Positions 4,331-52,925 of a stretch of DNA of 64,000 nt are shown in pieces (the first letter of the stretch is position 1; the number at the start of each line of letters is the position of its first letter). Position numbers and translations under genes: made by a program. The stretch is from positions 2,240,001 through 2,304,000 of the forward strand of contig OY970061.1 of the NCBI GenBank assembly GCA_963705255.1, written 5' to 3'. This DNA comes from an uncultured Methanoregulaceae archaeon (GTDB taxonomy: Archaea; Halobacteriota; Methanomicrobia; Methanomicrobiales; Methanospirillaceae). Below the pieces are notes generated by a model. The model ran no database searches, was not told where the DNA came from, and worked only from the letters and a program-made list of their open reading frames with translations.

Positions 4331-4709
4331 TCGAAGAACTCTGACGAGTTCTTCCCCAGTCTGCTCTTCCCTTCGGGAACAGAAGTCTCCCCATTGGGGA
4401 GGCAGCCCAAGGGGTGCATCCCCTTGAATCTCTGAGCGGTCTTCAGACCTCGAAGAGGAGAAGGGAGGCAAGAGCCGACCTTCGACCCATCTATTATTCC
4501 TCCTGTTCTCCCGGGAATTTCTCGCTAACCTTCTGAGTGACTATCACAGTATGGGGCAAATCTGCCGTTGCCCAAGGCAAGGGCAGATTCGAGAAGATGC
4601 GAGAGCATCTTCGCTGTGCCCTAGTGGCAGGCAATTCGAAGAACGCTGACGCGTTCTTCTCTTGTCTCCATGACTTCGTCATGTCGACATCCCCAAGAGC
4701 GTCAGAACA
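4331..4709. repeat. Mosaic cluster of REP-like hairpins between the two cyclophilin genes
   Basis: GAAGAACTC-TGAC-GAGTTCTTC (4333-4354), a reverse-oriented copy at ~4590-4613, GAAGAACGC-TGAC-GCGTTCTTC (4638-4659), the 45-bp module (4512-4556) and several extra hairpins. Confidence 0.85.
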
Positions 4710-4735
4710 TTGTTCCAATGATTTCTACAGAGCCT

Positions 4736-5425
4736 TCAGACCATCACGGCACGGATGATCGTGATGTTCTGGAGGGGGCGGTTGTTCGGGTCGCCGGACG
4801 TGGGAGTGCTCCCGATCGCATCCACCACGTCCATCCCTTCGACCACGTTCCCGAAGACCGGGTAATGGCTGTCAAAGCCGGGCTGGAGGGCGCTGTTGTT
4901 CACGAGATTGATGAAGAACTGGGAGCCCCCGCTGTTCGGCTGCCCGGTGTTGGCCATTGCGACCGCCCCGCGGCTGTTCATGTTGTGGCTCGTGAACTCG
5001 TCCGGGATCGTGTAGCCCGGTCCGCCCAGGCCGGTACCGGTAGGGTCGCCGCCCTGAATCATGAAGCCGCTGATGACCCGGTGGAAGATGGTGCCGTCAT
5101 AGTAGCCCTTCAAAACGAGGGTCCCGAAGTTGCCGGCCGTGATCGGCATCGCAGGGTCGAGCGCGATGGTGATGTTGCCCATCGTGGTCTCGAGCAGCAC
5201 CTCCCTGCCGGAGAGCGCTGAAGTGGCTGTCGTGACCGCCGTGGTGGTTGCCGTGGCTGTTACCGTAGCGGACAGAGGTGCTGCCGTGGCGGCGGGCGCC
5301 AGGGTGGTTGCAGCCGCGGCCTGTGCGGTTCCTGAGGGTGCTGGCTGGGTGCATCCTGCGCAGAACAGAAGTGCTGCCGCAAAGAGCCCGAGAATACAGA
5401 GTGTCCTGACTGGTGACATCCTCAT
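4736..5425 (-). CDS. Secreted/lipid-anchored cyclophilin-type PPIase with Ala/Thr-rich linker
   Basis: Hydrophobic signal ending CAGC (lipobox-like), Thr/Ala linker, then a cyclophilin domain [15 protein letters not shown]. Confidence 0.9.
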   Translation of the reverse strand: MRMSPVRTLCILGLFAAALLFCAGCTQPAPSGTAQAAAATTLAPAATAAPLSATVTATATTTAVTTATSALSGREVLLETTMGNITIALDPAMPITAGNFGTLVLKGYYDGTIFHRVISGFMIQGGDPTGTGLGGPGYTIPDEFTSHNMNSRGAVAMANTGQPNSGGSQFFINLVNNSALQPGFDSHYPVFGNVVEGMDVVDAIGSTPTSGDPNNRPLQNITIIRAVMV

Positions 5426-5480
5426 ACTATCGGTGCTGCGGGAAAATAGAGGTTGCGGGGACTTTCAGTTCCCCTTGTAT

Positions 5481-6167
5481 TCACTCTGCCTTCTTCTCAT
5501 CGTCCCTACGGCCTCTTGTGCCGAAGAAGAAGATCACGCCGGCGGCAAGGACCATGGATACCGTACCTGCCAGGAGGACGAGCTCGCCTTTTGTGATTGC
5601 GTCATTGTAGTCCTTTGCCGACATATCGATGGCGAGCACGGCGACGGTGTTGCCGCCGGAGCCGCTGGCGGAATCATCGATCGGGGCATAGGCGCTCATG
5701 AACGACCCGTATTTTGTGGTGTAGGGCTGCTCCGAGGCGGTCGGGCCGGAGAGGGCGGCGAAGATCTCGTTCTGGTCCGGGGCAGTGGAGGCTTCGCCGA
5801 TCTTTGCCGAGCCCTGCGGGTCCAGCGGGTAGAGGTCGTCCACGAGGAACGTGGCGGTCTTATCCGGGTTCACCTTGAGGATGTAGGCGTTGAGGATGCG
5901 ATCGTCCATGCTGCGCAGGGTCTCCAGGTGCCGTGCAACGGCAAGATACTGCGGGGACATCTCGTCGCCGGCCCTGAGGCCGGCGATATCGCTGGCATTG
6001 ACCTGCGTGGCCATGACGCCCACCGTGGACTCCATCCCCTGCCGGGTGGCGTCCCGGAGGGCGTTCTGCTCGCTGGTATAGGCGAACATCGTGAGGGCCC
6101 CGATGATGACGATCACGAGGACAGCGCTCACCCCGAGGTTTGTTGAAACTGAAGATTTTCCCGTCAT
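5481..6167 (-). CDS. Stand-alone membrane sensor-like protein (TM-extracellular PDC/Cache-like domain-TM)
   Basis: Two TM helices flanking a domain with YTTKYGSFMSAYAPI...VAVLAIDM, typical of Cache/PDC folds; no cytoplasmic output domain. Confidence 0.65.
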   Translation of the reverse strand: MTGKSSVSTNLGVSAVLVIVIIGALTMFAYTSEQNALRDATRQGMESTVGVMATQVNASDIAGLRAGDEMSPQYLAVARHLETLRSMDDRILNAYILKVNPDKTATFLVDDLYPLDPQGSAKIGEASTAPDQNEIFAALSGPTASEQPYTTKYGSFMSAYAPIDDSASGSGGNTVAVLAIDMSAKDYNDAITKGELVLLAGTVSMVLAAGVIFFFGTRGRRDDEKKAE

Positions 6168-6168
6168 T

Positions 6169-50412: not shown

Positions 50413-50718
50413 TATTATCGCCTCATGTTATGTTGAGTTGTTCGTATTGCGGTACAAATTTACGAAAGATCTCTCATCTCTAGAGATAATTGACCGTACA
50501 GAGTACGTTCAACTCTATCTTGTACTACCGATTTTATAACCTTTATGACTTAATCGCGGACAGGTAAAAATGTCAGAATGGAGTTATTTTCAGCATCCTG
50601 CCCCGGAATCGGGCGGATAAAAATATTTGGCGCAAAACTGCCCCCGGGCAATAAAATAATACGCTCAATATTTATTGCTCCATTTCCGGCAAAAAACAGG
50701 AAAAGCTGGTACTGCTTT

Positions 50719-51727
50719 TCAGCCGCTGAACTGTTTTTCCCCGTTCAGTTCATCGACCAGTTCGGCAATCGTGGCCCGGCGTTCCGCGTAGGCATCGTGC
50801 TGGTGGATGCTCTCCTCGTTGGTCTGCTTGATCGTGACGACCGAGTCACCGGGAAGGTACTCGAATTCCGCAAGGACTTTCCTGGCCATCTCGCGGACGC
50901 AGTCTTCCACGAACCGGGGATTCTTGTGCGCGGCGAGCACTACGGCACCTTCATCGCCTCTCTTCAGGAGCTCGTAGATGCCGCTGCTCATCGAGTCCTT
51001 GAGAATGCAGATGATCTTCTCGAGGTCAACGTGCTCGTCGTCGTCAGTTTCGATGCAGAGAAATCCCTTCCCCCGCTGGTTGTGGGTCGCCATGGGGACC
51101 GCGGAGAAGAAATCGTCGATTTTGTCCTGGGAGACATCGAGGTCCTGCAGGACGTGCATCGCGCGTTCCTTCATGATGTTCTGGGCGCAGGGGCAGGTCG
51201 TCATGCCGGTCACTTCCGCGCCGATACTCTTCCTGACGATCGGGCTCCTGAACGTCCTGCGGGCGATGGCCCGGGCGTGCACCTTGACGACTTCATGGCA
51301 GGCAGTATGGCTGATCGGGGTCTCGCGCTTGACCATGAACTCGCTGCGCATGAAGACTTCGGTACGGTCCGCGTATTCGTGGCGGTCGAGGAGTTTTCGC
51401 GCCACCACGCTGCAGAGTTTCTCGATCTCGTTCACCTCGCCGTCAATCGCCTGCTGGAGAACCTCGTCGATCACCTCGAAATTGCGGGAAAGGTTGGCCC
51501 CCTTGAGGCTTCCGGGGAGGTCGACGTAGACATCGAAGTTCGAGATAAAAATAACCGGGCGTTTCTCGCTCCGGTGGACTTCGACAAGCTTCTTGACGTT
51601 CTTGACCCCGACCCGGGTGAGGTTGATCCGGACATCGGGGGATGTTGCCTGGACATCCGGCAGATCCTTGGAGAAGGTCTTGTCCGGGGACTGCTCAACA
51701 TGGGTGTGTTTAACAGGAATAGGTCAT
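50719..51727 (-). CDS. mptA: GTP cyclohydrolase IV MptA (methanopterin synthesis); start region probably frameshifted
   Basis: Frame extends beyond the ORF track to [48 protein letters not shown]. Confidence 0.9.
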
Positions 51728-51815
51728 CGCATCCAGATGGTTCTTCGCGTTGTGCTTCTTTAGTGTTTTCATATCATATTTATGTTCTCTGTTGCTGATA
51801 TCAAAGGGATCGCAT

Positions 51816-52804
51816 ATGTTGAAAAAATATTATGAGGCAGACGCAGATCCCGGCGTGCTGAAAGGCAAAAAGATCGCCGTGATCGGCTATGGGTCACAGG
51901 GCAGAGGGCAGTCGCTGAACCTGAGGGACAGCGGGCTCGATATCATGATCGGGCTGCGCCCCGGGAAGAGCTGGGACGCTGCCGTGAAGGACGGCATGAC
52001 CGTGATGCCGGTCGCCGAGGCAACAAAGAAAGCGGATATCGTCCAGATCCTCCTCCCCGATGAGCACCAGGCGGCAGTGTACCGGAGCGAGATCATGCCG
52101 CATCTCAAAGAAAACAAATGCCTCATGTTTTCCCACGGGTTCAACATCCATTTCGGCCAGATCGTCCCCCCGCCGACGGTGGATGTCATCATGGTGGCAC
52201 CCAAGGGGCCCGGGTTCATGGTGCGCCGCCAGTACGAGGAGGGCAAAGGCGTGCCCGCGCTCATCGCCGTCCACCAGGACCATTCGGGAAAAGCCCACGC
52301 GATTGCCCTTGCGTACGCAAAAGGCATTGGGGCGACCCGTGCCGTCGTCCTTGAGACCTCCTTCCGCGAGGAGACCGAGACCGACCTGTTCGGTGAGCAG
52401 GCCGTGCTGTGCGGCGGCTGCACCTCCCTTGTCAAGGCCGGGTTCGAGACCCTGGTCGAGGCCGGCTACGAGCCGGAGATGGCCTATCTCGAGGTGCTCC
52501 ACGAGCTCAAGCTGATCGTCGACCTGATCTACGAGGGGGGCCTCACCAACATGCGCAAATACATCAGCAACACGGCGCAGTACGGCGACCTCACCCGCGA
52601 CCCCGGGTCATCGGGCCGGAAGCCTACGAAGCGATGCAGGAGATACTCGAGGATATCCAGACCGGGCGGTTCGCCCGCGAGTGGATGCTCGAGAACCTGG
52701 TCAACCGCCCGCAGTTCAACGCCCTGACAAAAGCAGACGAGGAGCACCTGATCGAAGAGGTCGGAAAGGAAGTCCGGGCCATGATGCCCCAGTTCCGTAA
52801 GTAG
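51816..52804 (+). CDS. ilvC: Ketol-acid reductoisomerase, apparent -1 frameshift near 52599
   Basis: [31 protein letters not shown](G)PRVI is restored by one missing G. Confidence 0.95.
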
Positions 52805-52893
52805 TTTCTTTACAGAAACTCCTTACGTCTCCTATCAGGAATTGAAATTCCTTCGAGGTTCAGGAAATGATTTACAATCATTTCCTTCTCCAC

Positions 52894-52925
52894 TCGGAGA
52901 GCACTGACGTGCTCCCTCGTGGTTC
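52894..52925 (+). repeat. Variant REP-like hairpin within a hairpin cluster (52838-52930) downstream of ilvC
   Basis: TCGGAGAGCAC-TGAC-GTGCTCCCTC-GTGGTTC aligns with 44786-44818. Confidence 0.65.

Follow-up and report, generated by a model that had tools for sequence, protein, structure and literature searches.

Repetitive extragenic palindromic (REP) sequences of bacteria, with bacterial interspersed mosaic elements (BIMEs), REP doublets forming hairpins (REPINs) and the TnpA-REP nuclease (REP-associated tyrosine transposase, RAYT), are described as intergenic, high-copy, strand-specific single-stranded DNA (ssDNA) hairpins with a fixed foot, a two-part unit and mosaic or tandem arrays that vary between strains (PMC8266576, PMC3333891, PMC3116915, PMC3733652). 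One of these accounts adds that a CGTC-tagged class also occurs without a dedicated transposase (PMC3733652). In archaea, the small mobile repeats (SMRs) SMR-A and SMR-B of Haloquadratum walsbyi are described as 80–110 bp long, with no transposase and no target duplication, their mobilisation being termed enigmatic (PMC3119063); how transposase-less short repeats spread is called open for both groups by the sources cited. Here we analyse a family of hairpins in an uncultured Methanoregulaceae archaeon, noticed in a stretch of 64,000 nucleotides (nt) of its contig OY970061.1 (C1:2240001–2304000 of the source genome G000; hereafter the window; other genomes also carry G-numbers, and genera g-numbers). 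We conclude that it is a real, mobile, strand-specific two-hairpin DNA repeat of the REP/SMR-like kind.

The original prediction, made from the letters of the window, described dispersed intergenic hairpins with fixed feet and variable but paired stems, and this observation is confirmed. The pattern TCGAAGA-N6-20-TCTTC matches the window nine times, against a mean of 0.27 in shuffled sequence (100 shuffles, maximum 3, none reaching nine). Seven of these matches are predicted hairpins (4331, 4636, 7783, 10058, 44786, 46624 and 46680), and those at 8447 and 56544 are chance matches without pairing; the copy predicted in reverse orientation near 4590 was also found, as was the partial one at 46579. 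The list had missed one unit at 4431–4487 on the forward strand, and its supposed variant at 52894 turned out to be a different, single long hairpin, present at the 3′ end of ilvC in G092, G050 and G146. Genome-wide, 139 of 159 matches with exact feet have a perfect inner stem, no pairing filter having been applied. Among 40 distinct 12-nt inner sequences, the four stem positions are paired in 39, 36, 36 and 38; over 5000 shuffles the corresponding means are 27.8, 17.5, 15.1 and 32.5 and the highest values 34, 29, 26 and 37. This shuffle-based result is uncorrected for phylogeny and inflated by related copies. The fold is kept over the sequence. No hairpin matches Rfam, which yields only the signal recognition particle RNA and two tRNAs in the window.

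Although the predicted hairpins are real, each is only the 3′ half of a two-hairpin unit of 50–57 nt, and they had been read on the opposite strand: the TC...TC feet and TGAY loops correspond, once reverse-complemented, to GA...GA feet and RTCA or GNA loops. On the GA strand, the unit consists of hairpin 1 (11–12 bp, often with an internal tandem G·A), a spacer of 0–1 nt, hairpin 2 in the form GA-GAAGA-stem-loop-stem-TCTTC-GA, and a 1–2-nt tail. A relaxed search of the genome found 269 hairpin-2 cores in 152 clusters, 208 of them with at most one mismatch. Hairpin 1 lies directly 5′ of 157 of these 208, compared with 1.15% of random sites, and has its own tandem GA in 105. The length is 55–57 nt in 100 of 142 distinct units, and a 50-nt subgroup exists. 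The hairpins are shuffled between units, 64 types of hairpin 1 and 40 of hairpin 2 occurring in 104 combinations.

The stabilising features of the fold lie on one strand. Of 1477 perfect hairpins in the genome (stem of at least 7 bp), 263 are closed GA/GA on one strand, compared with 11 of 661 in an order-4 Markov control, and 171 of the 263 have the GAAGA foot. Stems on the GA strand are clamped by tandem G·A pairs, with loops of the form c(GNA)g or c(RTCA)g. Among 52 triloops, 39 have the sequence GNA and 11 ANA, making 50 purine-N-A, and the commonest loop of all is ATCA. The bases flanking the tandem GA covary (mutual information 0.49, 0 of 200 shuffles; G-C 63, T-A 15, G-T 12 and C-G 6 of 134), and since the base 5′ of the foot thus varies with that 3′ of it, the tandem G·A is often an internal motif. 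A kink-turn was considered and dropped on inspection, there being no consistent 3-nt bulge with a closing stem. ViennaRNA folding energies favour the GA strand in 134 of 142 units with DNA parameters and in 122 with RNA parameters; the unit at 4634–4689 folds as DNA with −16.7 kcal/mol (z −6.3). The case for DNA comes from the loop types and from the lack of a transcription bias: between co-directional genes, the structured strand is the sense one in 50 cores and the antisense one in 44. DNA mini-hairpins of the types GCGNAGC and GCGNNAGC, with c(GNA)g and c(GNNA)g loops and sheared G·A pairs like those of the methanogen units, are described as extraordinarily stable when made of DNA, their RNA counterparts being much less stable; ATCA lies outside the set given there (PMC13037366). 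The natural examples described, at single-strand origins and N4 promoters, are single functional sites, whereas the methanogen units are a dispersed mobile family. We conclude that the features of the GA strand are a ssDNA signature. The source genome shows no clear skew by which its replication strands might be distinguished.

As predicted, the repeats are intergenic, dispersed and REP/BIME-like in behaviour, only four of the 208 cores lying inside genes as called by our own hexamer-model gene caller, which also defined the gaps. Their proposed position 3′ of a gene is a tendency only: cores occur in 36 of 274 gaps between convergent genes, 23 of 341 between divergent genes and 56 of 866 between co-directional ones, an approximately two-fold enrichment in convergent gaps (13.1% compared with 6.7%, p=0.009).

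Filled and empty orthologous loci were compared with G092, which is ∼92% identical to the source in this region; ∼0.9 of 2.6 Mb and 443 orthologous gaps were taken in. Cores are present in 38 of these gaps and differ in number between the genomes in 27. Clean indels of at least 20 nt number 30, of which 7 were flagged with a core, and they include clean indels of 45–64 nt; the segment that moves in the indels comprises both hairpins, 1 and 2, on one strand. An empty version of the flank pair was found for 59 of 237 units, or 65 of 352 with a free gap, and 32 of these 65 share one register, with 10 more one base off. Repeated flanks accompany 86 of 157 units, compared with 9.4% of random intergenic sites, and two duplicated loci differ by a 55-nt segment that is bounded by 13-nt direct repeats. 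Within the window, the single unit at 44784–44838 is matched in G092 by four tandem units with a period of ∼54 and mismatched hairpin-2 arms, which look recombined at the loop, and in the gap that holds the unit at 7781–7842 G092 carries a different, larger mosaic. The gap between the two cyclophilin genes is ∼600 bp in the window and 104–128 bp in G050, G144 and G149, which lack the mosaic entirely (G146 was not anchorable there). In G146 a GAAGA unit lies inside the long hairpin 3′ of ilvC. Units are gained and lost whole, turnover is fast and intergenic DNA is quickly restructured. Joints in contigs, considered as evidence of unit excision, trace instead to other repeat copies.

Both junctions follow the same motif, and insertion is precise. 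The 5′ end of the unit is the first base of hairpin 1, which is T in 98 of 111 contexts of one main class and 78 of 96 of the other, and the 3′ end falls 1–2 nt past the foot. A T stands at −7 in 87 of 135 distinct non-tandem flanks; among 65 units with unique flanks, C-8 occurs in 34, T-7 in 51 and T-6 in 44, with purines following, where T makes up 25% of intergenic bases. Metagenome loci, some perhaps from genomes already sampled, have T-7 in 32 of 41 and a first-base T in 36 of 41. Insertion follows YTTNRRNN, a consensus that matches the unit's own end, CTTCGANN. GCTG ends 19 of 22 GC-footed contexts in different hosts, and insertions at GAGAA^GAA bear different tails; the tail is at least partly the unit's own and travels with it. 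CT is the commonest tail dinucleotide, yet accounts for only 37 of 138, and the 4-mers before the foot in 157 units are led by GCTG (20), ACAG (16), AGAG (14) and ACTG (13), with others following; the 30 most frequent do not include GTAG. A related 49-nt two-hairpin insert, with GAGGGAG...CTCCCTC as its second hairpin and the same 11-nt first arm, distinguishes G000:1417288–1417901 from G092 at the same GAGAA^ site.

The explanation that we favour, at about even probability, is single-strand cut-and-join of a ∼55-base mobile DNA by an enzyme outside the recognisable Y1 transposases. The non-autonomous element of 50–57 nt would act as a folded single strand, and a nuclease supplied in trans would recognise the GA-clamped hairpin and cut ∼7 nt after the T in YTTNRRNN, both at the unit's own end and at the target. 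The 5′ T of the unit would then be joined to the target, with the polarity of IS200/IS605 peel-and-paste, probably by way of a small dumbbell circle, and recombination between units would shuffle the two hairpins. As each unit end would itself be a target, tandem arrays and nested mosaics would follow. The repeat is probably selfish, tolerated mostly where promoters are undisturbed.

Several points weigh against this explanation. Since the GA strand is favoured under both parameter sets, folding energy alone cannot separate DNA from RNA. The 3′ end wobbles by 1 nt, and a direct repeat of 2–4 nt (GA, GAA, GAG or GCTG) is found at ∼7–8 of ∼11 distinct host sites, with target and tail sharing their third base in each of 17 related contexts. 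If these repeats were genuine target duplications, they would count against single-strand transfer and for a staggered double-strand cut or microhomology-led repair. Many of the filled/empty pairs belong to related scaffolds and cannot be counted as independent, and gain is not polarised against loss by an outgroup. A mobilising enzyme, finally, was found in none of our searches. The Y1 family PF01797, which the prediction of spread by a Y1/TnpA-REP nuclease would call for, is absent from all 15 carrier genomes of this family, the source included, as judged by a profile that could miss a very divergent HUH protein; it occurs in 3 of 23 high-copy and 7 of 19 low-copy genomes of g23 and g21. No convincing HUH-motif protein was seen among the called genes, and the surroundings of the repeat in 125 metagenome loci and 20 stretches of g23 contain no gene that recurs. 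IS110 is absent from G000, TnpB does not track the repeat, being present in a non-carrier and absent from G178, and a reverse transcriptase, encoded by a 33%-GC gene, occurs only in G000 among five carriers.

The other candidates can be summarised briefly. No mobilising gene lies near the copies in the window, as had already been noted. Only the IS200 subclass of Y1 proteins is described from Archaea (PMC6006769). No Y1 locus in g23 or g21 carried a real unit, and three apparent cores within the tnpA genes of g21 are coding sequence that matches by chance. The full-length PF01797 match in G178 is an ordinary IS200 without units, and a weaker partial match (L231) also lacks a core. The source genome has tnpB-only copies and a single tyrosine recombinase. 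Its 528-aa reverse transcriptase (G000:315961–317547; L019/L295) lies in a 33%-GC island beside a small nuclease-like gene and probably serves anti-phage defence. A multi-copy 167-aa gene (L012:4243–4746; paralogues in L011 and L014–L017) was rejected as mobiliser, being present in 55 of 58 genomes with 1–16 matches each. It has no Pfam or PHROG family and no usable Atlas match; its model (pLDDT 94) has no Foldseek match at E≤0.001 and no clear structural counterpart, the best Z (7.1, a weak value) being to KA1-like domains, with no HUH protein among the matches listed. The gene is often followed by small genes of 54 and 153 aa, the latter also set aside as it is found in 28 of 45 genomes and is absent from most g13 and g5 carriers. 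The leader of the 167-aa gene contains a conserved TGTCAAAGGGGCCCC hairpin, followed by an accumulation of units and other hairpins, even in low-copy genomes. An expanded ∼122-aa Hjc/PD-(D/E)xK-like family with degenerate catalytic motifs has 18 open reading frame (ORF) matches in G000 (L018:3808–4182 and 17 more), some near cores. Among proteins common to G178 (1.0 of 2.8 Mb) and G000, the recognisable top matches are housekeeping and most of the 244 rows are unannotated; no transposase was found among the 78 of 115 neighbours of G178 elements that were scanned.

The lack of a mobiliser in any search suggests a first alternative, which is possible at a rather low probability: that no dedicated enzyme exists, and that the stable mini-hairpins are stalled or nicked during host replication or repair, the nascent strand switching at 2–4-nt microhomology, copying one unit and returning, with slippage and gene conversion producing the arrays and chimeras. 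The junction microhomologies, the 55-nt difference bounded by direct repeats, the chimeric hairpin-2 arms in the G092 array and the similar GA-clamped repeats in unrelated lineages are all consistent with such a process. The fixed end register, the 5′ T, the T at −7 in unique flanks and the near-constant length suggest a protein footprint instead, and congeners with the same core machinery have only 0–4 matches.

Improbable, in our judgement, is a double-strand recombinase or transposase that makes a 3–4-nt staggered cut, leaving either a target duplication or a pair of ends of which one is the donor's and the other the target's, as with Tn916-type elements and their coupling sequences. At GAGAA^GAA and CAAGG^TTC it is the left 4-mer that persists in the empty site, and at other hosts the right 4-mer, with a 3–4-nt repeat, as a staggered cut would allow. 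The units, however, have no terminal inverted repeats, the one-strand fold features would be left unexplained, only the one tyrosine recombinase was found in the source, and in the two variant hosts the third base of the tail forms a pair with the nucleotide 5′ of the foot as well and so may belong to the unit itself. The unit ends are not mutually complementary and any duplication is of 0–4 nt, which also sets the units apart from classical miniature inverted-repeat transposable elements.

The 3′-UTR family that had been predicted, or another structured RNA kept for mRNA stability or protein binding, is very improbable: tandem G·A is also an RNA motif, as in kink-turns, and the enrichment in convergent gaps and the orientation bias in G178 (where the GA strand is antisense) could be read this way, but the source genome has no such bias, GNA triloops predominate, gain and loss at orthologous sites are fast and Rfam gives no match.

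The units share much with the systems introduced above while differing from each. The failure to find a Y1/HUH gene in the 15 carriers and the lack of a GTAG tag at the foot indicate that this is not a REP/RAYT system, and we know of no RAYT in methanogens. The CGTC tag is lacking also, the unit is made of two unlike hairpins head to tail rather than an inverted doublet, the junction is YTTNRRNN^T rather than CT, and the stems are far more variable. IS200/IS605 elements are described as setting their cleavage sites relative to subterminal hairpins (PMC3333891), and these elements and the 52-bp terminal-only palindrome-associated transposable elements (PATEs) resemble the units in having two subterminal hairpins, a 5′ target motif that resembles the element's 3′ end and a similar minimal size (PMC3119063, PMC3333891). 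In contrast to IS200/IS605, the carriers have no TnpA and the conserved bases lie 6–8 nt from the junction, not abutting it; in the comparison with PATEs, the 5′ target motif is present in the units, and most host sites have 2–4-nt direct repeats. IS605 copies in related genera start after TTTAA and have no unit inside, and their ends in g21 differ from those of the units. The prediction knew of no described equivalent in methanogens; among archaea at large a published analogue exists, the nearest being the Haloquadratum SMR class, whose members, as described, are likewise short, non-coding, targeted to palindromes of other repeats and without a known mobiliser (PMC3119063). By the same description, SMR-A has prominent terminal inverted repeats and conserved family sequences, whereas the methanogen units are shorter, lack such repeats and keep structure over sequence. 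No description of the repeat in methanogens was found in the literature searched, a search that extended to neither subscription journals nor ISfinder.

The repeat is patchy across Methanomicrobiales. In the source genus, 7 of 31 genomes have 41–170 matches, one has 7 and 23 have 0–4. Genus g13 has 8–48 matches in 10 of 11 genomes, genus g5 has 9 and 24, and at least 10 are present in 18 of 33 g23 and 5 of 10 g21 genomes; in three other families the number does not exceed 6. Those g23 loci that were inspected follow the two-hairpin grammar as well. Viral contigs gave just two chance coding matches, and plasmids and phages none. The family would extend REP-like biology to methanogens, and with its defined ends, target motif and close relatives carrying 0 or more than 100 copies it should allow the enzyme to be found by comparative genomics.

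Among the 111 loci listed in a scan of all genomes, gut bacteria have hairpin 2 letter for letter, with another hairpin before it. The matches number 74 in G178, 18 in G179 and 6 in G180, and the genus of G178 has three further carriers among 61 genomes; none of 120 other members of the Lachnospiraceae has more than one match. The module sits there within a larger scaffold, and in G178 its orientation is strongly biased (30 compared with 3). Few independent shared positions are left once the stability features are discounted, so that both common descent and convergence are possible for the bacterial look-alike. In the 1.0 Mb of G178 sampled (L232–L291), a scaffold repeat ending in ...CCTCAGCGAGG has 107 copies, 39 with a GAAGA hairpin upstream. 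A start codon (of an ORF of at least 80 aa or running off the locus) lies 3–17 nt downstream of 72 of the 107, at exactly 7 nt in 53, a spacing that points to the scaffold repeat as the ribosome-binding site of many unrelated genes. A bolder interpretation, which we regard as doubtful, is that the family is a minimal ∼55-nt ssDNA dumbbell transposon, moved by an enzyme class not yet tied to mobility or by a core host enzyme, either of which would read sheared G·A hairpins together with a T lying seven bases upstream of the cleavage point, and that the module has also reached a Lachnospiraceae genus. The bacterial module would in that case be carried by a repeat that sets itself up as ribosome-binding site for many genes. 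Separately, in G387 (L480 and L481) GA-clamped GNA mini-hairpins form long arrays that run in one direction, with periods of 68–80 bp.

Table 1. Two-hairpin units and associated repeats in the window (predicted hairpin positions in brackets).
Feature	Position	Strand	Remarks
Host scaffold repeat	4309..4703	+	Between two cyclophilin genes; left end GAGRGTGACCCCCTCTCTC, right end CCCCAAGAGCGTC; four units inside
Two-hairpin unit (4331)	4329..4388	-	One foot mismatch; hairpin-2 stem differs in G092
Two-hairpin unit, GAGAAGG...CCTTCGA subtype	4431..4487	+	First base T; T at −7
Two-hairpin unit (∼4590)	4559..4616	+	Carried GCTG tail
Two-hairpin unit (4636)	4634..4689	-	Hairpin 1 with internal tandem GA and c(GAA)g loop; hairpin 2 with c(GTCA)g loop
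Two-hairpin unit (7783)	7781..7842	-	c(GGA)g triloop; 5′ end placed by eye
Two-hairpin unit (10058)	10056..10110	-	One stem mismatch; abuts orphan scaffold right end 10112-10124
Single unit (44786)	44784..44838	-	Between convergent genes
Decayed third unit of tandem array	46579..46621	-	Partial copy
Tandem unit (46624)	46622..46677	-	
Tandem unit (46680)	46678..46730	-	Directly 3′ of FrhB-family gene
Other hairpin, not GAAGA family	52880..52932	-	Single long hairpin, same tandem-GA grammar, positionally kept at ilvC 3′ end

Scaffold ends of the kind that bound the host repeat in Table 1 occur 44 times (left) and 47 times (right) in the genome, forming 32 pairs that hold 52 of the 208 cores. 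Scaffold-type repeat pieces without GAAGA units also lie behind the elongation factor 2 gene, at 2388–2700 and 3380–3480 of the window. Directly before the ilvC 3′ hairpin, ∼59 bp with a small hairpin inside (52815–52875) are absent in G092. A 495-aa, 45%-GC gene at 44875–46362, PMT_2-like by a weak Pfam match under the cut-off, has units on both sides.

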